From a bacterium (lineage in GTDB: Bacteria; Bacillota; DTU030; JBMNJR01), in assembly GCA_050951765.1 (NCBI GenBank), contig JBMNJR010000015.1, positions 159,591 to 223,590 of the forward strand: 64,000 nucleotides of DNA, given 5' to 3'. How positions within the stretch are numbered: the stretch's first letter is position 1; each line of letters starts with the position of its first letter. Positions 5,689 to 46,621 of the stretch are shown here, one piece after another. The position numbers and the translations under genes were made by a program. The notes below the pieces were generated by a model. That model did not search any database, was not told the DNA's origin, and saw only the letters and a program-made list of their open reading frames with translations.

Positions 5689-6369
5689 GTGAGGATTATT
5701 CGAATTACCTTACGCCAGAAAAAAATTATTGATATTGTCAAGAACAAGGAACCTATTACCAGTGAGCAGATCGCTGAGGAATTATCTTTAACCCGGGCAA
5801 CCTTACGACCTGATCTGGCTATATTGACGATGATGGGCATTTTAAAGGCAAAACCGCGGGTTGGCTATTGTTATAACAAAAAGCCGTTGCCATTCTTCAT
5901 TGGCGATCAACTGCAAGAACTAACGGTCAAAAGTGTTCAATCTCGGCCGGTGGTAGTCAGGGACGATGTCACCATTTACGATGCTATAGTCACTATGATG
6001 CTGGAAGACGTAGGCACTTTAATTGTTGTGGAGGAAAACGGATTGCTCGCCGGCATAGTATCCCGGAAAGACCTATTGAAAATAACTCTTGGCCAGGGCG
6101 ATATTCATAAAGTACCTGTAGGTATTGTTATGACTCGGTTTCCCAATGTTATAACCGTTACCCCGGAAGAGAGCGTTTGCGAAGCAGCGCGGAAAATGGT
6201 GGAGCATCAAGTTGACGGTTTGCCGGTTGTAGTATTGAAGGACGTTTCTCAAGCGGATCCCCATACATTACGAGTCGGGCTGAAAGTGGTTGGCCGGATC
6301 ACAAAAACTAATATAACAAAGTTGTTTGTTGAGTTAGGCTTAGGTACATACTGGCACAGGGAGGGATAA
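5689..6369 (+). CDS. ccpN: CcpN-like transcriptional repressor (HTH + tandem CBS domains)
   Basis: GTG start after GAAAGGGG; N-terminal HTH (ITSEQIAEELSLTRATL) followed by two CBS domains; conserved ccpN-yqfL arrangement immediately upstream of the PPDK regulatory gene. Confidence 0.7.
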   Translation: MRIIRITLRQKKIIDIVKNKEPITSEQIAEELSLTRATLRPDLAILTMMGILKAKPRVGYCYNKKPLPFFIGDQLQELTVKSVQSRPVVVRDDVTIYDAIVTMMLEDVGTLIVVEENGLLAGIVSRKDLLKITLGQGDIHKVPVGIVMTRFPNVITVTPEESVCEAARKMVEHQVDGLPVVVLKDVSQADPHTLRVGLKVVGRITKTNITKLFVELGLGTYWHREG

Positions 6370-6387: not shown

Positions 6388-7185
6388 GTGGTGTATATTC
6401 TTTCGGACTCTGTTGGTGAAACTGCTGAATTAGTTGTTCGTGCCGCTGCCAGCCAGTTTAATTCCGGGCGGATAGAAATTCGCCGGATTCCCTTTGTAAG
6501 AGAAATAGAGAGCCTGGAAGGCATTTTAGAAGAGGTAGAGGAAGCACAAGGGGTATTGGTTTATACACTGGTATTGCCCCAGTTACGCAGTTACATGCGG
6601 GAGGAAGCGGCAAAACGGGGAATTCCCAGCGTTGATATTATGGGCCCTGTTGTGGATACGATTGGAAAATTGTTTCCCCAGCCGCCTCGGCTTAAACCCG
6701 GACTGGTCTATCAGCTGGATGAGGAGTATTTCCGGAAGGTGGAGGCAATTGAGTTTGCGGTTAAATATGATGATGGTAAGGAACCACGGGGTATTTTATG
6801 GGCAGATGTGGTTATAATTGGAGTATCGCGAACTTCCAAAACTCCTCTGTGTATGTATTTGGCGCATAAGGGCATGAAGGCTGCCAATGTTCCTTTGGTG
6901 CCGGAAGTAAGCCCGCCGGAGGAACTGTTTGCTGTTTCTCCCAATAAAATTGTCGGTCTCACTATTGCGCCGCGACATTTATTGGAAATTAGGCAAGAGC
7001 GTCTGAAAAATCTTGGGTTGAAGGGTGATGCTGCTTATGCTAATCCTGAGCGTATTTTAGCTGAGTTAAGATATGCTGAAGAAATTATGTCTAGGATCCG
7101 GTGTCATGTGATCGATGTCAGCAACAAAGCTGTAGAAGAAACTGCCGGTGAAATCGCCAGGATTATTAAGAAAGGGTGGAAGTGA
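6388..7185 (+). CDS. pyruvate, phosphate dikinase regulatory protein (PDRP/PpsR, DUF299 kinase/pyrophosphorylase)
   Basis: GTG start; VYILSDSVGETAE N-terminus and P-loop GVSRTSKTPL typical of the PDRP family; directly precedes ppdK. Confidence 0.85.
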   Translation: MVYILSDSVGETAELVVRAAASQFNSGRIEIRRIPFVREIESLEGILEEVEEAQGVLVYTLVLPQLRSYMREEAAKRGIPSVDIMGPVVDTIGKLFPQPPRLKPGLVYQLDEEYFRKVEAIEFAVKYDDGKEPRGILWADVVIIGVSRTSKTPLCMYLAHKGMKAANVPLVPEVSPPEELFAVSPNKIVGLTIAPRHLLEIRQERLKNLGLKGDAAYANPERILAELRYAEEIMSRIRCHVIDVSNKAVEETAGEIARIIKKGWK

Positions 7186-9839
7186 TGCAGAGAAGTTATG
7201 TTTACTTTTTTTCAGAAGGTAATGCCAAGCAAAGGGATCTTTTAGGTGGGAAAGGTGCCAATTTGGCGGAAATGACCCGCATTGGGTTGCCGGTTCCTCC
7301 CGGTTTTATTGTTAGTACTGAAGGTTGCCGCGCTTATTATTCTGAAGGTGAACAGCTTTCCGAAGCAATGCAAGCGGAGATTAGGTATGGGATCAAAAAA
7401 TTGGAAGAAAAAACGGGTAAGGGCTTTGGTGATCTGGCAAATCCGCTCCTGGTATCAGTTCGTTCTGGAGCTGCCATATCTATGCCCGGCATGATGGATA
7501 CGATTTTAAACCTAGGGCTTAATGAACAAACTCGGAATGGTCTAGCAAAGCTTACGGATAATCTGCGTTTTGCCAATGACTGCTATCGGCGTTTTATTCA
7601 AATGTTTAGTGAGGTTGTCATGGGAATCCCGGCAGAGAGCTTTGAAACGGAAATAGAAAAAGAAAAGCAAGCGGCAGGAGTGGTCAATGATACTGAATTA
7701 ACTGCTGCTAATTTAGAAAGGTTAATCGAAAGGTTTAAGGGGATTTATCGGCAGCAAATAGGTGAAGAGTTCCCTACGGATCCCATGGAGCAGCTTTTTG
7801 CGGCAGTAAAGGCAGTTTTTGCCTCTTGGAACGGTAACAGAGCGGTTATTTATCGCCGGCTACATAAAATTCCCGATGATATCGGGACAGCGGTAAATAT
7901 TCAAACCATGGTTTTTGGCAATATGGGTGATGATTCCGGTACAGGGGTTGCCTTTACACGTAATCCGTCCACAGGGATAAAAGAATTATATGGAGAGTAT
8001 CTTCTTAATGCCCAAGGTGAAGATGTGGTAGCAGGGATAAGGACCCCGCAACCACTAACAGGCTTAAAGCAGCAGGTACCAGAAGTGTATAAACAGTTTT
8101 TGCAAACTAGTCAATTGTTAGAGCAACACTACCGGGATCTACAGGATATTGAATTTACTTTTGAAAAAGGAAAACTATATGTTCTGCAAACACGTTCCGG
8201 CAAAAGGACTGCGGCTGCTGCGGTAAAAATAGCGGTGGATATGGTGGAGGAAGGATTAATAAGCATCGAAGAAGCTATCTTACGCATAGAACCGGAACAA
8301 TTAAACCAGTTAATGCATTCCAGTATTGACCCGGAGGCGGAAGCGGAAATACTGGCCAAGGGTTTGCCTGCTTCCCCAGGGGCTGCCATCGGCAAGGTAG
8401 TTTTTGATGCGGACCTAGCTGCAGAATTAGGCAAAAATGGAGAAAAGGTTATTTTAGTCAGGCCGGAAACCACTCCCGATGATATTCACGGCATAGTTAT
8501 GGCTCAAGGAATTCTTACCAGCAGAGGTGGCATGACAAGCCATGCGGCAGTTGTTGCCCGGGGCATGGGTAAGCCTTGCATTTGCGGGTGTGAGACTTTG
8601 CGGATTGATCTGCGGCAAAAGCAGTTTACCGCTAAGGGCATAACAGTGAAGGAGGGCGACTTACTCACTATTGACGGCGGTACAGGTAGTGTTATCTTAG
8701 GCGAGGCGAAACTTGTTTCGGCACAAATGACCGCCGAATTCCAAGTTTTATTACGCTGGGCAGATCAGATTAGCCGTTTAGGTGTGCGAGCCAACGCCGA
8801 TACACCGGAGGATGCAGCGCGGGCAAGGGAATTTGGTGCCCAAGGAATCGGATTGTGCCGGACCGAGCATATGTTTATGCAGCCGGAACGTTTGTTAACT
8901 GTACAGCAAATGATTCTTGCCGAAAAAGAAGAAGAGCGTGAGCAGGCATTAGCAAAACTATTACCGATGCAGCAGCAAGATTTTTATGGCATACTAAAAG
9001 CAATGGCAGATTTACCTGTGACTATTCGCCTGTTAGATCCGCCGCTCCATGAATTTTTACCCAGCGCTGAAGAGCTGTTGGTAGGGATTACTAAATTGGA
9101 GTTAACCGGTGAAAATCCGGAATTATTAGCCGAAAAGCAGGCGTTATTAGCCCAAGTCCGTGCATTGTCGGAATTTAACCCCATGCTTGGGCATCGAGGT
9201 TGTCGCCTGGGGCTTACTTTCCCTGCTGTATATGAAATGCAGGCAAAGGCGATTTTTAACGCGGTAGTTGATTTAGTTAAAGAAGGCATTAATGTATACC
9301 CGGAAATAATGATCCCCTTGGTTGGCGATCAGCAAGAGTTGATCCCGCTACGGGAACTAGTTATAAAAGTAGCAGAACAAATAAAAGCAGAAGCCGGCGT
9401 AGATTTTTCCTATACAGTTGGTACAATGATTGAATTGCCACGGGCTTGTCTAGTAGCAGATGAAATAGCAGCACATGCCGATTTCTTTTCCTTTGGCACA
9501 AACGACTTAACACAAACTACTTTTGGTTTTAGCCGGGATGATGCTGAAGGGAAGTTTTTATATCAATATATTGATCAGAAAATATTACAAGATAACCCCT
9601 TTGCGGTTTTGGACGAGAAGGGTGTGGGCAAATTGGTTGATATGGGCGTAAAACTGGGGCGGCAGCGGAGGGCGAATTTGAAAGTGGGCATTTGTGGCGA
9701 ACACGGCGGTGAACCAAGGTCTATTGATTTTTGCCATCGGGTTGGCTTAGATTATGTCAGTTGCTCCCCCTTCCGGGTACCGGTTGCAAGGTTAGCAGCA
9801 GCCCAGGCGGCGATTAGAAATAAAGATCAATCAAAGTAA
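7185..9839 (+). CDS. ppdK: pyruvate, phosphate dikinase
   Basis: 885 aa; ATP-grasp N-terminus (GGKGANLAEM), phospho-His domain (GGMTSHAAVVARGMGKPC), PEP-utilising C-terminus (CGEHGG). Confidence 0.9.
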   Translation: MQRSYVYFFSEGNAKQRDLLGGKGANLAEMTRIGLPVPPGFIVSTEGCRAYYSEGEQLSEAMQAEIRYGIKKLEEKTGKGFGDLANPLLVSVRSGAAISMPGMMDTILNLGLNEQTRNGLAKLTDNLRFANDCYRRFIQMFSEVVMGIPAESFETEIEKEKQAAGVVNDTELTAANLERLIERFKGIYRQQIGEEFPTDPMEQLFAAVKAVFASWNGNRAVIYRRLHKIPDDIGTAVNIQTMVFGNMGDDSGTGVAFTRNPSTGIKELYGEYLLNAQGEDVVAGIRTPQPLTGLKQQVPEVYKQFLQTSQLLEQHYRDLQDIEFTFEKGKLYVLQTRSGKRTAAAAVKIAVDMVEEGLISIEEAILRIEPEQLNQLMHSSIDPEAEAEILAKGLPASPGAAIGKVVFDADLAAELGKNGEKVILVRPETTPDDIHGIVMAQGILTSRGGMTSHAAVVARGMGKPCICGCETLRIDLRQKQFTAKGITVKEGDLLTIDGGTGSVILGEAKLVSAQMTAEFQVLLRWADQISRLGVRANADTPEDAARAREFGAQGIGLCRTEHMFMQPERLLTVQQMILAEKEEEREQALAKLLPMQQQDFYGILKAMADLPVTIRLLDPPLHEFLPSAEELLVGITKLELTGENPELLAEKQALLAQVRALSEFNPMLGHRGCRLGLTFPAVYEMQAKAIFNAVVDLVKEGINVYPEIMIPLVGDQQELIPLRELVIKVAEQIKAEAGVDFSYTVGTMIELPRACLVADEIAAHADFFSFGTNDLTQTTFGFSRDDAEGKFLYQYIDQKILQDNPFAVLDEKGVGKLVDMGVKLGRQRRANLKVGICGEHGGEPRSIDFCHRVGLDYVSCSPFRVPVARLAAAQAAIRNKDQSK

Positions 9840-10589: not shown

Positions 10590-11327
10590 ATGAATGAGGT
10601 TTTTCGGATGGAATACAAATATGGAAAAAATGGGAATTATGAGCACTTTTCCAGTGGTCGGGTGCTATATCATGGCAGTGGGATGACGAACTTTCCGGTG
10701 AGATTGGCACAGGAGATATATGGTAGATGCTTACAATACTTACCTAAAAAGAAAAATATATGTGTATATGATTGTTGCTGTGGTGGGGGATATTTACTTA
10801 CTGTTTTGGGCTTTTTAAATCAAGACACCATTGGGAGAATCATTGGCAGTGATATAAATATGGAATTAATAAATACGGCACAAAAGAATCTATCACTGCT
10901 AAGCATAGAAGGAATAAATAGGCGGATAACGGAGATTGAGCAGATGATAGCTAGTTATCACAAGCAGTCACATGTTGAAGCAAAAAATAGTGCTGTTATA
11001 CTCAAAAGCTTGCTTAAAACCAAGATTGAGACTGAAGTTTTTCAAGCTGACGCAACAAAATATATTAGTATGCAGGTAAAACCGGATATTATTGTTACTG
11101 ATATTCCATATGGTCATATGGTAGCTTGGAGTGGAAATGAAGAAAATGTTATTGATCAGTTATTAGATATGATTTATGAAATTTGCAGTCCAAATACTAT
11201 TATCGGTCTTTGTATGCATAAGAAGCAGAAAGTCAGGAATGAGAAATTTACGCGCTTGGAAAAACAACAAATAGGAAAAAGGCAATTTACAATCTTAAGA
11301 ATAAATCAGTCGAAAAACAATGAATGA
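10590..11327 (+). CDS. putative SAM-dependent N-methyltransferase (motif I DCCCGGGY, motif IV TDIPYG), AT-rich gene
   Basis: Rossmann-fold MTase motifs in order I (VYDCCCGGGYLL), acidic post-I residue (IGSDIN), IV (IIVTDIPYG, DPPY-like); markedly lower GC than its neighbours. Confidence 0.5.
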   Translation: MNEVFRMEYKYGKNGNYEHFSSGRVLYHGSGMTNFPVRLAQEIYGRCLQYLPKKKNICVYDCCCGGGYLLTVLGFLNQDTIGRIIGSDINMELINTAQKNLSLLSIEGINRRITEIEQMIASYHKQSHVEAKNSAVILKSLLKTKIETEVFQADATKYISMQVKPDIIVTDIPYGHMVAWSGNEENVIDQLLDMIYEICSPNTIIGLCMHKKQKVRNEKFTRLEKQQIGKRQFTILRINQSKNNE

Positions 11328-19786: not shown

Positions 19787-20140
19787 GTGAGTAGGCCGGA
19801 TGACCGCAGGAACAAGTGCTGAAAAGCCGTTCTTGAGGAAAGTCCGAGCTCCACAGGGCAGGATGCTGGATAACGTCCAGTGGGGGTAACCCTAAGGCTA
19901 GTGCCACAGAAATAAACCGCCTGGTATTACATATCAGGCAAGGGTGGAACGGTGAGGTAAGAGCTCACCAGCAGTTAGGCGACTAACTGGCTAGGTAAAC
20001 CCCATCCGGAGCAAGACCGAATAGGAGAAGGAGGAAGTTGCCCGCTGACTTCTCGGGTTAGGTCGCTTGAGGTGTCAGGTAACTGGCATCCCAGATAGAT
20101 GGTCATCTAAGACAGGACTCGGCTTACAGGTCTACTCATT
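19787..20140 (+). ncRNA. rnpB: RNase P RNA, bacterial type A
   Basis: universally conserved P4 strand AGGAAAGTCCGAGCTCCACAGGGCAGG; GGTAAGAGCTCACCAG (P10/11 region), ACAGAAATAAACCGCC, GAATAGGAGAAGG...; P1 pairing GAGTAGGCC / GGTCTACTC at the termini. Confidence 0.85.
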
Positions 20141-20165
20141 TATAGTACTCAATTAATAATAATAC

Positions 20166-20241
20166 GGGGCATTAGTTCAGTTGGGAGAACGCTTGACTGG
20201 CAGTCAAGAGGGCAGCGGTTCGAGTCCGCTATGCTCCACCA
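20166..20241 (+). tRNA. tRNA-Ala (anticodon GGC), CCA encoded
   Basis: cloverleaf read by hand: acceptor GGGGCAT/ATGCTCC with the G3:U70 alanine identity pair, D-arm GTTC..GAAC, anticodon loop CTGGCAG (GGC), T-arm AGCGGTTCGAGTCCGCT, 3' ACCA. Confidence 0.9.
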
Positions 20242-40880: not shown

Positions 40881-41064
40881 TCCCGCCTGCAGTGTTTTTC
40901 TTTAGTAATTAGGCTAATTAAGTGGTTTTATGCATGGGAGATTAATAATGGATGTGAAATTTTCAAAGGCGTTAGTGAAAGGGAAAGGTGTTATTATTTT
41001 GGGCGGCGAATAGGAAATTTGTGACTTAAATTAATATCGGCAGTTGATAAAGGAGCAGGAAGTA

Positions 41065-43518
41065 ATGAAGAAAAAATCGTCAGCCCATACCCGGCAGCCA
41101 ATCATGGGTGATTTTGGCCTGCATTGTGGTTTTACAAAAAAAACTATAGCAGCACTGTATAGATCCTTAAGCAGGGTTTCTCCTTCCAGGCGGGGGGAAT
41201 TGGTAGACCGATGGCAGCATGTTATGTGCCAAGATGAAGTGAATAATGCCCGCGCCGAAACCCGGAAAAAAAATGCTTTAATCTCCTTGGCTGGAGAATT
41301 GGGTTTTAATAGTTGGGAAATACAACCGCAGCTGTTTTTGTTTGTTCTCCATACATATTTTGCCCTGATAACAAAAATGCTGGCAGCGCCGGTTATTGGC
41401 TTTGCCGAGCATCCCCCTGACCAGCAAAATTTGTTTCCCTGGCTGACGGGGCTAGAGAGACATCCAATTTTCGCCATGCCGGCAGGAGATAGTCAAGGGG
41501 CAGCTCTTTTTACTTGGTATCTGGAAAACTGGACTCCAAAATTAGCTGATGCGCTGGAGGAACTGCTTGCGTATACCCGGTCTTCTTATGTAAACAGGCA
41601 TAACAAACAACAGCTGCCCGGTGATATTTTGCATTATTTGTATCAATCACTCTTTCCGGCGGCTTTACGGCACGGTATGGGTGAGTATTATACACCGGCA
41701 TGGTTAGTAGATTACAGTTATGAATTGTTGGCCCCTAAATTTTTCTCTCCCGACGGAGAGGCAGGTTTATTAGACCCTGCCTGCGGATCCGGCGCTTTTC
41801 TCCTGCCGGCGCTGAAACAGTTATGGCAGGAGGGGCAAGAATTGGGTTTCAGTGCAAGGGAGTTGATTGTCGCCTCCGGCAGGTTGGTGGTAGGAATCGA
41901 TCGGAACCCTTTGGCTGTTTTAGCGGCGCGGGTTAATTATTTATTAGCGATTGCAGCTTACGCACCAGGTATGGCTGCGCATTTTTTACCTCCTGTCTAT
42001 TGGGGGGATAGTATTTTGGCACCACCGCAAGAGTTGGAGGCTAAAGAATTTCAATATATTGTAGGCAATCCGCCTTGGGTTAATTGGGAGGCGTTACCTG
42101 CAGAATATAGAGAAAAAACGAAGCAATTATGGACTGAGCACGGTCTTTTTCAACATCAGGGTTATGATGCCCTGTTGGGCAAAAGTAAGGATGATTTGTC
42201 TATTTTAATAACCTATGTAGTTCTTGAACGCTATCTTCGCCGCGGTGGCACCCTGGCTTTTATTATCACCCAATCTATTTTTCAGACTACCGGTGCAGGG
42301 AGGGGCTTTCGCTCTTTTCAGCTTGGTGATGGAACGCCGATTCAGGTATTGCAAGTGGAAGATCTTAGTTGTATTAAACCGTTTTCCGGAGCCAAGAATC
42401 GCACCGCTATGGTTTTACTGCGAAAGGGAATGCGCACCTGTTACCCGGTTCCCTATATATATTGGCAGCGTCAACCGGGCTTTCCAGCTCCCCGGGAGCA
42501 TGACAGTTTGATCAAGGTAAAAAGGCAGACTCAACGTTTAGCATTGGTAGCCAAGCCTTATTTGCCCACTGACAATGCTTCGCCTTGGTTGACAATCACC
42601 CCGGGGGTTTTACCGGTTATTGAAAAGCTACAGGGTAAGTCTTATTATCAGGCGCGGGAAGGGGTAAATACCGGGGGTGCTAATGGCGTATTTTATTTCG
42701 AGGTCTTGGCACGGGGAAAAGACGGGAAAAAGCTCCTGGTGCGCAATATCACATCTGGCAATAAAAGATCAGTGCCGGCACAGGAAGCATGGTTGGAATC
42801 CGATCTGATTTATCCGGTTCTGCGGGGCCGCAATATTTCCCCTTGGCGAGGAGTACCGGAAGAATGGATCCTACTGACCCATCAAGAAGGGAAAAAGCTG
42901 CAGGCTATTCCCCCGGAGGAACTAGCTAGTGATTACCCAAACACCTTTGCTTATTTAGAGAGCTTTGCTCCCATTTTATATCAGCGGCGAACGCAGGTAG
43001 TCAGAAAACTGATGGAGAAAGGTTTTTATTATTCTCTCTTTGGCATTGGCGACTATACATTTACTCCCTTTAAGGTAGTATGGCATCGGATTGGCACCAA
43101 GATCAAGGCTGCAGTTGTAGGTAGTCTCGATGTTATGCCGCCCCAGCAGGGGTTAATAATACCTAATGACAGCACTGTTTTCGTTCCTTTTACCCAAGCT
43201 GAGGAGGCTTATTACTTCTGCGCATTGCTCAATTCGGCTCCTGCCCAGCTGATCGTGCGCACAACCTCTGTCCTGGCCACCGGAAGTTTTGCCTCACCCC
43301 ATATTTTAACTAAGGTGCCAATCCCCTGTTATCAGTCTAATAATTCTCTGCATAAGGAATTGGCTCACTTAGCCAAAACAGCGACCTCCGTTGCCTGCAA
43401 GGGAGAGAATTGTGAAAAATGGGAGAATGAAATTAACAAACAGGCAGCGGCATTGTGGGGCTTAAGCCACAGTGAATTAGGGGAAATTCAGCGCTGTTTG
43501 CAACAGTTGGGTAGTTAG
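41065..43518 (+). CDS. gamma-class N6-adenine DNA methyltransferase (Eco57I/PglX-like MTase core + TaqI-like C-terminal target-recognition region), no cognate nuclease nearby
   Basis: motif X GEYYTPAWLVDY, motif I LLDPACGSGAFLL, motif IV VGNPPW in gamma-class order; 818 aa with about 420 aa C-terminal non-catalytic region. Confidence 0.8.
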   Translation: MKKKSSAHTRQPIMGDFGLHCGFTKKTIAALYRSLSRVSPSRRGELVDRWQHVMCQDEVNNARAETRKKNALISLAGELGFNSWEIQPQLFLFVLHTYFALITKMLAAPVIGFAEHPPDQQNLFPWLTGLERHPIFAMPAGDSQGAALFTWYLENWTPKLADALEELLAYTRSSYVNRHNKQQLPGDILHYLYQSLFPAALRHGMGEYYTPAWLVDYSYELLAPKFFSPDGEAGLLDPACGSGAFLLPALKQLWQEGQELGFSARELIVASGRLVVGIDRNPLAVLAARVNYLLAIAAYAPGMAAHFLPPVYWGDSILAPPQELEAKEFQYIVGNPPWVNWEALPAEYREKTKQLWTEHGLFQHQGYDALLGKSKDDLSILITYVVLERYLRRGGTLAFIITQSIFQTTGAGRGFRSFQLGDGTPIQVLQVEDLSCIKPFSGAKNRTAMVLLRKGMRTCYPVPYIYWQRQPGFPAPREHDSLIKVKRQTQRLALVAKPYLPTDNASPWLTITPGVLPVIEKLQGKSYYQAREGVNTGGANGVFYFEVLARGKDGKKLLVRNITSGNKRSVPAQEAWLESDLIYPVLRGRNISPWRGVPEEWILLTHQEGKKLQAIPPEELASDYPNTFAYLESFAPILYQRRTQVVRKLMEKGFYYSLFGIGDYTFTPFKVVWHRIGTKIKAAVVGSLDVMPPQQGLIIPNDSTVFVPFTQAEEAYYFCALLNSAPAQLIVRTTSVLATGSFASPHILTKVPIPCYQSNNSLHKELAHLAKTATSVACKGENCEKWENEINKQAAALWGLSHSELGEIQRCLQQLGS

Positions 43519-43519
43519 G

Positions 43520-43925
43520 TTTGGTCCTCACACCGATTCCCGGCACAAGTGTCCAGCACTTATGGCGTCACCCTTGGGGAGGACCTATCACTGCGGTTCC
43601 TTGTCCAGCGGGGTCGTGAGCCCATGGGACCTCTATACTTCTAGGTGCCGGAAGTACCTCTCCACAGCAGGAGACAGTTCTCCTGAACGAGCGCGGCTCG
43701 TTCGGGCAGTGACACAACCCGCCCTTGCGGGCTCAGACATGGTGTCGCTGCTTGTCCTCACTCGCCTGCGTTCTCTTTACTTAGTATCTCAATGCTGTTT
43801 CAGGGTACTTCCGGCACCTGGCAACGAGCTATTGACTGCTGTCTATTGGCAACTGCTACAGCCGCTCGCCGCAAATACGCTTCGCCAGAAGTGCTGACTT
43901 TGGTGCACTCTATCCTTGTTGTGCG
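43520..43925. other. GC-rich non-coding region with nested long-range inverted repeats (candidate structured RNA or recombination/MITE-like element)
   Basis: perfect 15-bp inverted repeat GGTGCCGGAAGTACC (43644-43658) / GGTACTTCCGGCACC (43804-43818); outer 14-bp repeat CAGCACTTATGGCG (43553-43566) / CGCCAGAAGTGCTG (43883-43896); internal hairpins CAGGAGAcagtTCTCCTG, GAACGAGCgcggCTCGTTC, CCCGCccttGCGGG; GC clearly above the flanks; the only ORF has a non-protein-like composition. Confidence 0.5.
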
Positions 43926-43967
43926 CTAATGGGATGGGCAAGCCTATTTTGTAAAGCTGGCGACTGC

Positions 43968-44112
43968 TCTTGGAGGTTAGAAGTTTAGAAGTTGGAAGTT
44001 AGAAAAGAGACTATATAGTTTTAGGTGCTATGCATAACAAAGGAGAAATAAAGAAATCTTTCGCCTTACTGTCTAACCTCGAAACTCTAACTTCTAACTT
44101 CTAACTTCTAGG
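43968..44112. repeat. palindromic element built from tandem heptamers (TAGAAGT x4 ... ACTTCTA x4) around a 60-nt AT-rich loop
   Basis: left arm GGAGGTTAGAAGTTTAGAAGTTGGAAGTTAGAA, right arm CTCTAACTTCTAACTTCTAACTTCTAGGAG; the arms can pair over about 30 bp. Confidence 0.6.
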
Positions 44113-44173
44113 AGAGGGCGCCATGGTCGCCGGAGCCAACGGCAATATTAGGCTAGCACCGGACAATGTATTT

Positions 44174-46621
44174 TCAAGGTAGTGCTGGAGTTTTTTTCGG
44201 TTGAGTTGGTTCTTCATCAATTTGCCACAGCTGTTGTGTACGGATCTGTTGTGCAAATGCAGTCAAGCGCCTGTTTACCAAGTCATTGACAGTACCTGTG
44301 GCGAAGGATTCATTTTCATCCTTATCTCCGGCAGGCAGATCGGTAAGGATCTCTATTCCTTCGCTAATATGGTCAATGGCATATATATGGAATATACCTT
44401 TGGTAACAGCCTCCACAACCTCATCCTTCAGCATGAGGTTTTTGATATTTTGGCGAGGAATGATTACTCCTTGTCTCCCAGTAAACCCTTGAATTTTGCA
44501 GACATAGAAAAACCCTTCAATTTTTTCGTTTACTCCGCCAATAGGTTGTATCTCCCCCCGTTGATTGACAGAACCGGTAACTGCAATGCCCTGACTTAGA
44601 GGAACTCCGGCCAAACTAGAGAGCAGGGCATAAAGCTCAGCACTGGAGGCACTGTCACCTTCAACCCCGTCATATGATTGTTCAAAACAAATTGTGGCGG
44701 AGAGGGTCAACGGTTTATCTTGGGCAAATTTGCCTCCCAAATAGCCGCTCAATATCAAGACGCCTTTATTATGAATTGGCCCACTGAGATCAGACTCCCG
44801 TTCAATATTAATAACACCCTGTTTACCACTATAAGTGCGGGCAGTTATGCGCACGGGCTTGCCAAAGCGATAATCACCCAGATCGAGAACTGAAAGCCCG
44901 TTAATTTGTCCAATTACCTTATCTTTAGTGTCTACAAGAATATCGCCGCGGGCAATTAACTCCCGGATTTTTTCTTCGGTCCGGTTAGAACGATATTCCT
45001 TTGCTTCTAGAGCTTTAACCATATGCATGGGTTCAATTTGTTTGGAACCGTCTGCTTCTGCCCAGGCATTGGCTTCACAGATCATTTCCACTATTTTATT
45101 GAAACGGGCGGTCATTTTCTCCTGGTCACCGGCTAAGCGAGAACTGTAATCGATTAATTGAGCGCAGGCAGCAGCAGTGAAGTGTCTCAGTCCAGCTCGC
45201 CGGCAATATGAAGCAATAAATGCAGCATAATTGCTGATGTTATCGGGAGTGCGGGGCATTTCCGCTCCGAAATCTGCTTTCACTTTAAATAGTGTGGCAA
45301 AGTCCTCGTCAAACTGATAAAGGAGATTATAGATTATGGGACTGCCAATGATAATCACCTTTGTTTCCAGTGGAATCGGTTCCGGCTTGAGACCGGCAGT
45401 AGGAACTAGGCCGTATCTTTCAGCAATATTCTCCATCCTAATTTCCTGGTTCTTTAAGGCTTTTTTCAATGCATCCCAGGAAGCAGGTTGCCGGAGAATA
45501 TCTTCGGCATAAAGGATTAAATAGCCACCATTGGCACGATGCAGGGCACCGGCTTTGATCATGCTAAAATCGGTAAGCATTAATCCCAATTGTCCTTTAT
45601 ATTCGATCTTGCCGATTAAATTATAATAGGTCGGATTTGTTTCGATTACTACCGGTGCTCCCTGTTGTTTGCCATTATCGATGAGGAGGTTAACCTTATA
45701 TTTGTTAAAAGAAGTCTCTTGTTTGGATTTGTTGAAAAGGAAATCCAAAGCATCAAGTTCGTCTTTTTCTTTGCGAAAGGCATTTAAGTTTTCAATAATA
45801 TCATTTTGTACTGCTTCCAGGTATTCAACCACACGCGGAAACGCTTGATACCGGAGTTTAAGATCATCTATGGGATGGCGGACGATAAAATAGCCAATCT
45901 GTTTATCTAATTCCTCTACCTGTGTTTGAGCTTCTTTTTCCAAAAGCCGCAGGCGGCGTCCCAGTTCTTGTAATTTATCCTCCACTTGACGGCTTACGGT
46001 TTCGAATTGTTTCCGTGTTGCTTCATCTAAACCGGCCATTTCTTCCGGTTTCAGTGGCCGATTGTCAACCATGGGAAAAACTATAAAACCTGCCGCAGTT
46101 CTTTGTAACGTAAAGCCGGCTGCTTTGGCTTCCTGTTGGAATTGGTCTATCAGTTCATTGCTTGTCTCTTGGTATTGCTTGATCACCCGCTCTTTACTTT
46201 GTTGGTATTCTTCGCTTTCAAAGATTATTGGTATCCGTTGTTGTAATTCTTCCACCAACACTTCCATATCTTGGGCTAGCGAAGCTCCTACGGTTGGTGG
46301 CAAACGAAGCGAAATAGGTTCATAAGGTTGGGCAAAATTATAAACATAACACCAGTCGTCAGGTGGCGTTTCTTGCAGTGCTTTTTTTGCAATGGCTGTT
46401 TGCGTATAGGTGCTGCGTCCTGTACCAGCAGGACCCACAACAAATATGTTATAATGAGGATTTTTTATGGTCAGTCCGAAAGTTAATGCTTGCACAGCCC
46501 GTTCTTGGCCAAAAATATCGTCAATAGGGATTAATTGTTCTGTGGTATTAAAGGGTAATAGCCTCGGATTTAGTTGGCAGCGCAGTGATTTAGCGGGCAA
46601 AGATGAATAAGCAGTTGACAT
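44174..46621 (-). CDS. Lon-like ATP-dependent protease (AAA+ module + Lon S16 proteolytic domain; COG1067/LonB/BrxL-like)
   Basis: Walker A VVGPAGTGRSTY; C-terminal Lon protease domain with catalytic Ser in GDSASSAE and downstream Lys; 815 aa. Confidence 0.85.
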   Translation of the reverse strand: MSTAYSSLPAKSLRCQLNPRLLPFNTTEQLIPIDDIFGQERAVQALTFGLTIKNPHYNIFVVGPAGTGRSTYTQTAIAKKALQETPPDDWCYVYNFAQPYEPISLRLPPTVGASLAQDMEVLVEELQQRIPIIFESEEYQQSKERVIKQYQETSNELIDQFQQEAKAAGFTLQRTAAGFIVFPMVDNRPLKPEEMAGLDEATRKQFETVSRQVEDKLQELGRRLRLLEKEAQTQVEELDKQIGYFIVRHPIDDLKLRYQAFPRVVEYLEAVQNDIIENLNAFRKEKDELDALDFLFNKSKQETSFNKYKVNLLIDNGKQQGAPVVIETNPTYYNLIGKIEYKGQLGLMLTDFSMIKAGALHRANGGYLILYAEDILRQPASWDALKKALKNQEIRMENIAERYGLVPTAGLKPEPIPLETKVIIIGSPIIYNLLYQFDEDFATLFKVKADFGAEMPRTPDNISNYAAFIASYCRRAGLRHFTAAACAQLIDYSSRLAGDQEKMTARFNKIVEMICEANAWAEADGSKQIEPMHMVKALEAKEYRSNRTEEKIRELIARGDILVDTKDKVIGQINGLSVLDLGDYRFGKPVRITARTYSGKQGVINIERESDLSGPIHNKGVLILSGYLGGKFAQDKPLTLSATICFEQSYDGVEGDSASSAELYALLSSLAGVPLSQGIAVTGSVNQRGEIQPIGGVNEKIEGFFYVCKIQGFTGRQGVIIPRQNIKNLMLKDEVVEAVTKGIFHIYAIDHISEGIEILTDLPAGDKDENESFATGTVNDLVNRRLTAFAQQIRTQQLWQIDEEPTQPKKTPALP

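Follow-up and report, generated by a model that had tools for sequence, protein, structure and literature searches.

A probable composite copy of a mosaic, non-coding interspersed repeat between convergent methyltransferase and LonC genes in an uncultured Bacillota

From the comparison of a single intergenic spacer with related loci, we propose that the spacer probably holds one composite copy (M1+M2+M3) of a non-coding mosaic interspersed repeat family, which would be non-autonomous and horizontally spreading, akin to MITEs and BIMEs. The spacer belongs to the window, i.e. the whole stretch of 64,000 nucleotides that was analysed, where three repeat modules, M1, M2 and M3, are pieced together over 43520-44182. 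The modules occur in unrelated spacers, alone and combined, are present or absent at orthologous sites, and are more alike between hosts than the host genes are. The element would hence be an undescribed but fairly ordinary interspersed repeat, and a discrete RNA gene is not demonstrated. Two alternatives had been raised in the original prediction. A repeat or recombination element at the DNA level is favoured, the element being multi-copy, unlinked and absent from orthologous spacers, although neither a target duplication nor a transposase was found. For a novel structured RNA, helices are indeed kept by compensatory changes, but no Rfam match, promoter, terminator or significant covariation was detected.

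The feature was initially drawn at 43520-43925, bordered by the stop codon of a methyltransferase gene (41044-43518, + strand) and the convergent LonC gene (44174-46621, - strand). It is real, but the repeated material runs on to 44182. The region is richer in GC than both neighbouring genes, as had been claimed, with a GC content of 55-58% (0.555-0.58 in 200-nt windows over 43500-43899) vs 0.40-0.50 in the flanks and 0.44 in the whole window, and the + strand is A-poor at the element, with an AT skew of about -0.2. The wider neighbourhood consists of housekeeping genes (2-oxoacid:ferredoxin oxidoreductase, beta-lactamase-like protein, butyrate kinase and phosphotransbutyrylase). The methyltransferase shows conserved synteny and 52-60% amino acid identity in relatives, and on this basis appears to have been passed down vertically. 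The features of the locus are as follows.

41044-43518, + strand: N6-adenine methyltransferase gene, 824 aa, with N6_Mtase/Eco57I/MmeI-type domains
~43526-43587, + strand: module M1, 5' repeat module (CCGATTCCCGGCAC ... CAGCACTTATGGCGTCAC), homologous to L090 10606-10673 and L101 7160-7230
43588-43966, + strand: module M2, main GC-rich unit of 379 nt, with two copies in L090 and contig breaks at its borders
43634-43825, + strand: core of M2, ~190 nt, closed by a long inverted repeat and found alone in L094/L095/L096
43641-43660, + strand: 5' arm of P1, the closing helix of the core, pairing with 43802-43821
43668-43685, + strand: hairpin CAGGAGA-cagt-TCTCCTG, kept in L090a, L090b and L096
43685-43703, + strand: hairpin P2, GAACGAGC-gcgg-CTCGTTC, stem invariant in 4 copies
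43706-43751, + strand: P3, a 10-bp helix (43706-43715 / 43742-43751) enclosing a GCCC/GGGC hairpin at 43721-43732
43752-43794, + strand: J3, conserved pyrimidine-rich stretch, predicted to be mostly unpaired, with 19% variable columns among 4 copies
43802-43821, + strand: 3' arm of P1, pairing with 43641-43660
43883-43896, + strand: right arm of the outer inverted repeat, pairing with 43554-43567
43940-44182, + strand: module M3, long hairpin with base GGGCAAGCCTATTTT / AATATTAGGCTAGC and inner stem GGCGAC / GTCGCC; its tail matches L090 and overlaps the LonC stop codon in the window
43958-44123, no strand assigned: window-specific filling of M3, long hairpin with TTAGAAG / CTTCTAA heptamer arrays, z -4.4
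44174-46621, - strand: LonC-type protease gene, convergent with the methyltransferase gene

The nested inverted repeats described earlier were largely recovered, with coordinates shifted by about one base. The inner repeat, reported as perfect over 15 bp, has 16 nt of unbroken pairing (43643-43658 / 43804-43819), or 27 nt when 81% complementarity is accepted (43643-43669 / 43793-43819), compared to a longest perfect inverted repeat of 6-11 nt in 300 first-order Markov simulations of the region; its exact 15-mer has no second occurrence in the window. The outer 14-bp repeat (43554-43567 / 43883-43896) is paired at 13 of 14 positions, but its left arm is located in the other module, M1. At least three short perfect hairpins had been reported between the arms, and all three are present, at 43668-43685, 43685-43703 and 43718-43731. 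In folding calculations on the 411-nt region, the + strand reaches -168.3 kcal/mol (z -5.36, with none of 100 shuffles as good) and the - strand -165.2 kcal/mol (z -4.15).

Much of this pairing is retained in the other copies. In P1 it is kept through a G-C to A-U change (L090a) and U/C-G changes, with a few mismatches, while the hairpin at 43668-43685 has three G-U wobble positions on the + strand in L090a and L090b and a larger loop in L096. P2 recurs in a diverged relative (L103 5811-5846, GAAGGAGC/GCTCCTTT), where a C-G to G-C swap leaves the stem intact. L090b retains the outer helix at 11 of 14 positions, and two compensatory swaps preserve it in the diverged L103 member (5855-5868 / 5981-5994). 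Relative to the other copies, M1 of the window carries a 19-nt deletion and an insertion of ~16 nt.

The element is multi-copy, one of the possibilities considered at the outset. M2 occurs twice in L090, at 10674-11043 (87.2% identity over 374 nt) and 8164-8524 (85.3%), both in intercistronic spacers of an ECF-transporter operon and in a single orientation. A third context, detected by a metagenome scan with a conserved 21-mer, is one locus seen in three samples (L094/95/96); at L096 5394-5578 the core is present by itself (window 43640-43819, 86% identity), between divergent genes beside thiamine genes. The tail of M3 (44114-44182) matches three successive L090 spacers (6529-6589, 8564-8625 and 11089-11157), and M3 stands alone in the L090 spacer 6487-6589. 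A copy of M1 at L101 7160-7230, which lies in the same organism ~1.35 kb to the left of the window, precedes a different middle segment, and a diverged, rearranged family member was identified at L103 5798-5994. The gene contexts are thus unrelated, namely methyltransferase/LonC in the window, the ECF-transporter operon in L090 and the thiamine-gene neighbourhood in L096. Only 4-5 distinct copies were recovered, among them four distinct M2 or core copies in three organisms at non-orthologous sites, and a high copy number is not shown by so few.

Comparisons of orthologous sites reveal three places where some relatives have the element and others lack it. In the relatives L081-84 and L088-89, the syntenic methyltransferase spacers (54-340 nt) bear no similarity to the element. 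The other two sites are in L103, where the ECF operon has its orthologue in an organism closely related to that of L090 (81% identical at the amino acid level in the protein compared); the two spacers that carry composites of ~0.8 kb in L090 measure just 24 and 73 nt here. In addition, 80 LonC loci from GTDB genomes hold no homologue of the element, and therefore there is no link to LonC. The idea that the element might always accompany the methyltransferase and Lon genes was consequently abandoned, given the other contexts, the empty orthologous spacers and these LonC loci.

The copy search covered metagenome contigs, 5.8 billion protein clusters and 1.8 billion representatives, with the translation of the open reading frame of the element serving as a proxy for DNA copies in the search that returned P0121, a protein called on contig L090 that is one annotated M2 copy. 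Self-BLAST of 79 kb of the window genome gave no further M2 copy, distant-mode BLASTN against collections of phages and plasmids turned up nothing beyond a trivial match of 49 nt, and five pattern scans of viral contigs did not find the element. Same-organism Logan contigs stop at 43623 (in two runs), at 43604 and, coming from the right, at 43956. Logan assembly uses k=31, and with this value the contig ends fit a repeat spanning ~43594-43985.

The three carriers differ widely in base composition, with GC contents of 44% (window), 51% and 58-59%, and the tetranucleotide correlations of the other two to the window are 0.72 and 0.25. In tetranucleotide usage, L095/96 and L103 resemble L082 (0.95-0.97) and L090 resembles L081 (0.87); from this similarity and common samples only, we infer that L090, L095/96 and L103 belong to these relatives. 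Nucleotide identity between the window organism and L081/L082 is 57-73% in orthologous genes and 35-43% at their third codon positions, which are saturated. Between the same hosts, the element is 85-87% identical at non-orthologous places vs 57-73% for host genes, and such identity of non-coding DNA at non-orthologous places therefore implies either recent horizontal spread or a constraint similar to that on rRNA. The sporadic, shuffled occurrence would favour spread over such a constraint. The carrier organisms co-occur in the same digester samples. As the element has the GC content of the 58-59% GC host, its GC excess could derive from its structure, from an origin in a higher-GC relative, or both.

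Direct marks of transposition were not detected. No target-site duplication is present at the core borders (L096), at the M2 borders (window and L090) or in the filled and empty L090/L103 sites, none of these borders being exact to the base, and ~2 Mb of loci examined contain no transposase or autonomous partner with the same ends. An inverted repeat of 16-20 bp encloses the core, and M2 overall is without clear terminal inverted repeats.

We propose the following mechanism for the mosaic repeat. The composite would have arrived by insertion of mobile DNA that moves between co-resident relatives, with mobilisation presumably taking place in trans by some enzyme. The nested inverted repeats would represent the element's own structure, likely kept because the element must fold in single-stranded form, as ssDNA when mobilised or as RNA on read-through. 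At this locus it would be transcribed passively as the 3' UTR of the methyltransferase gene, and the very stable fold may then act mainly as a 3' barrier and as an insulator between the two convergent genes.

How the helices vary bears on this proposal. In a six-helix model of the core, built on 5 sequences from 4 lineages, 94.9% of cells are paired, with two compensatory pairs and many one-sided G-U changes. Column variability in 4 copies is lowest in the inner stems (11%), followed by J3 (19%), the P1 arms (32%) and the loops (36%). A single-stranded form seems to matter because compensatory and wobble changes keep the helices and the inner stems vary least; selection on pairing in such a form, RNA or ssDNA, seems to operate, without being statistically secure. 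The covariation analysis suggested with the initial finding accordingly gave a divided answer: compensatory changes do exist in other copies, but shuffles of the 5 sequences reach the observed values in 129-194 of 500 trials, which is not significant. That the closing stem varies more than the inner stems and J3 speaks against a plain MITE, and a pattern with the interior better conserved than the closing stem is the reverse of that in a classical MITE.

This pattern leads to a second reading, which regards the core (43634-43825), or all of M2, as primarily a mobile functional RNA with a defined structure, its repeat behaviour being secondary. Since a target duplication and an autonomous partner are missing and the interior is conserved, we grant this reading a minor but real share of the probability. 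Possible roles are an omega-RNA/HEARO-like guide or scaffold of an unrecognised mobile system, a ribozyme, or an sRNA pairing via its pyrimidine-rich strand. In agreement, the fold is strong, compensatory and wobble changes maintain the helices even in the diverged L103 member, and the inner stems and the unpaired stretch 43752-43794 are better conserved than the closing stem. Furthermore, the core stands by itself in L096, M1 of L101 begins 8 nt past a TGCTATAAT box, and identity across hosts is 86% with silent sites saturated. The strand preference is ambiguous. On the + strand, the core has G-U at 9 pair positions vs A-C at 3, but the 3' hairpin of M2 favours the opposite strand, and the consensus fold energies of the two strands are nearly equal (-83.0 vs -82.0 and -124.9 vs -119.7).

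Other observations argue against the functional RNA. At its gathering thresholds, Rfam 15 identifies only RNase P RNA and a tRNA in the window, both outside the element, which has nothing at E <= 10, and the other copies likewise give nothing consistent at this threshold; the original prediction, which had found no match to known RNA classes by eye, is borne out here. ARAGORN detects only tRNA-Ala at 20166-20241 and nothing in the element. No sigma-70-like promoter or intrinsic terminator is located at the borders of the core or M2 in the window. There is no conserved neighbour gene, and the modules are freely shuffled and truncated. Within the element, strain SNPs reach ~10x the density of those in the flanking genes, and one of them disrupts a stem. 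In L085, an 11.7-kb contig of the same population, 4 of the 14 SNPs relative to the window fall inside the element (43524, 43693, 43699 and 43751): 43693 G>T restores the base of the other family copies, 43699 C>A breaks the P2 stem and 43751 C>T creates a G-U pair in P3.

In an extended form of this reading, which we put forward as speculation with rather little credence, the core would be a functional RNA or structured ssDNA of an undescribed mobile system, characterised by conserved helices and a conserved tract of single-stranded pyrimidines. Such a core would pass horizontally among digester Bacillota, directing its own spread or controlling neighbouring transcripts, with M1 and M3 as promoter-proximal and 3' modules, respectively.

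Elements of the IS200/IS605 and REP/RAYT types move as ssDNA, recognise hairpins in place of terminal inverted repeats and do not duplicate their target. A non-autonomous IS200/IS605-type derivative (PATE) or a REP/RAYT-type element is nevertheless unlikely in the present case. The absence of a target duplication, hairpins conserved by pairing and not by sequence, stems whose tolerance of G-T suits ssDNA as well as RNA, and the one orientation in the L090 intercistronic spacers are all compatible with this origin. However, the loci examined contain no Y1/HUH transposase, TnpB or RAYT gene, no conserved tetranucleotide stands out as a target, and the modules are far larger than REPs.

It is very improbable that the region encodes a small protein or represents a decayed gene fragment: although all copies have a + strand open frame of 109-168 codons and one copy was called as a hypothetical protein (P0121), the open reading frame at 43562-43897 (111 codons) is without Pfam match, its substitutions relative to the other copies are even across codon positions (15/19/17 and 11/12/16), the frame is disrupted by indels of 1 nt, and two very large protein searches gave P0121 only. 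The frame stays open because the + strand is A-poor, and the initial view of it as an artefact of base composition thus holds.

Several further candidates were rejected. An intrinsic terminator was dropped, as no GC-rich hairpin stands directly before a U-run at 43500-44173 on either strand. The closing repeat of a retron msr-msd is present, but the neighbouring proteins scanned or listed contain no reverse transcriptase domain. M3 lacks the R''/R' core sites (RYYYAAC ... GTTRRRY) of an integron attC array; the L090 genes around it form an ordinary conserved operon, which L103 has without M3 at two sites. A cobalamin riboswitch, suggested by the cobalt/ECF context in L090, has no Rfam match, and a tRNA-derived fragment, suggested by CGATTCCCGGC in M1, matches no tRNA model. 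An invertible segment was discarded, the contig breaks being located at the M2 borders and not at the inverted-repeat arms.

Among known repeats, example families are Correia/NEMIS in Neisseria, RUP and BOX (boxA-B-C) in Streptococcus pneumoniae, and bcr1 in the Bacillus cereus group. Bacterial MITEs and modular interspersed repeats have been described in general (PMC3184786). Like these, the present element is non-coding, shorter than 600 bp (M2 379 nt, core 190 nt), located in intergenic or intercistronic spacers, bounded by inverted repeats at its core, strongly folding, presumably co-transcribed with its neighbours, and dispersed in copies that are present or absent between relatives; as in BOX, modules are recombined in varied sets. 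It differs in that neither a target-site duplication nor a cognate IS was detected, conservation is higher in the interior than in the inverted-repeat arms, few copies were recovered, and identity is 86% between hosts whose orthologous genes are 57-73% identical.

REPs are palindromes of 20-40 bp, most of which carry a GTAG or CGTC tag, and roles in termination and mRNA stabilisation have been proposed for them (PMC3733652). With REPs and BIMEs, the element shares the mosaic assembly of palindromic units within spacers, the M3 hairpin after successive operon genes and a likely effect on transcript 3' ends, but its units are 70-375 nt vs 20-40 nt, and no RAYT gene was seen in the loci examined. 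HEARO/IscB omega-RNA, TnpB omega-RNA, GOLLD and ROOL are large structured RNAs of patchy distribution that are linked to mobile elements; those of the HEARO, GOLLD, ROOL and omega-RNA families with an Rfam model were covered by the Rfam scans. The present element resembles them in size (190-450 nt), nested helices, GC-richness in an AT-richer genome and sporadic, non-syntenic occurrence. In contrast to them, it is scored by no Rfam model at E <= 10, has no adjacent IscB, TnpB or phage gene, and has shuffled modules.

If the mosaic-repeat reading is true, the spacer exposes a previously uncatalogued mosaic repeat family in uncultured Syntrophomonadales-like Bacillota. This would explain assembly breaks, help to avoid false calls of ncRNAs and open reading frames (one copy is already annotated as a protein), and allow recent DNA exchange to be traced between digester species that live together and differ greatly in base composition. 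The finding would gain weight if the conserved core were an RNA with its own function, the conservation pattern and the 86% identity being atypical of plain MITEs.

A number of additional observations were made at these loci. The arms of the heptamer hairpin in M3 lie at 43976-44004 and 44086-44110; the strain variant L098 has lost one heptamer unit from each arm, 8 nt in the left and 7 nt in the right, leaving the arms matched. At L098 8380-8520 (~window 44100-44240), a LonC variant has an A-run indel near the 3' end that extends the protein from 815 to 839 aa, into M3. Short direct repeats also occur in spacers without M2, at L081 8458-8794 (ACAGTTGAC-type) and L103 5890-5925 (AACCGATAAC-type), in positions analogous to the window heptamer arrays. 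In copy L090a, a 25-nt tandem repeat (L090 8070-8153, 3.4 copies of GCGACGGGCCTGTCCAAAGCCGAAG) separates a partial M1 from M2.

M3, with its GGCGAC...GTCGCC hairpin and a ...ATTAGGCTAGC... tail ending in a T-run, follows three successive operon genes in L090 (6487-6589, 8500-8625 and 11031-11157), and may mark transcript ends or processing sites. At L101 7143-7560, ~1.0-1.4 kb left of the window start, M1 begins 8 nt after a perfect extended -10 box, TGCTATAAT, and is followed by a different filling of nested inverted repeats (7244-7259/7477-7492 and 7268-7284/7349-7365) and then by an M3-like start; together, the stretch from box to M3-like start would form a ~460-nt leader of a DUF881 gene. 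On the same L101, one JGI contig, an exact 211-nt tandem duplication extends over the end of a diacylglycerol-kinase gene (6664-7084). It appears to be absent from L102 of the same organism, judged by the gene list, and is probably an assembly or strain difference.

Outside the element, the methyltransferase is 817-833 aa long and syntenic in all relatives, and the next closest homologues have ~1100 aa and cover just ~60% of the window protein in alignments; the gene resembles an orphan methylase maintained by vertical descent more than a component of a defence island. The RNase P RNA of the window is of bacterial class A (319 bits) and is directly followed by tRNA-Ala(GGC), the pair occupying 19788-20241.
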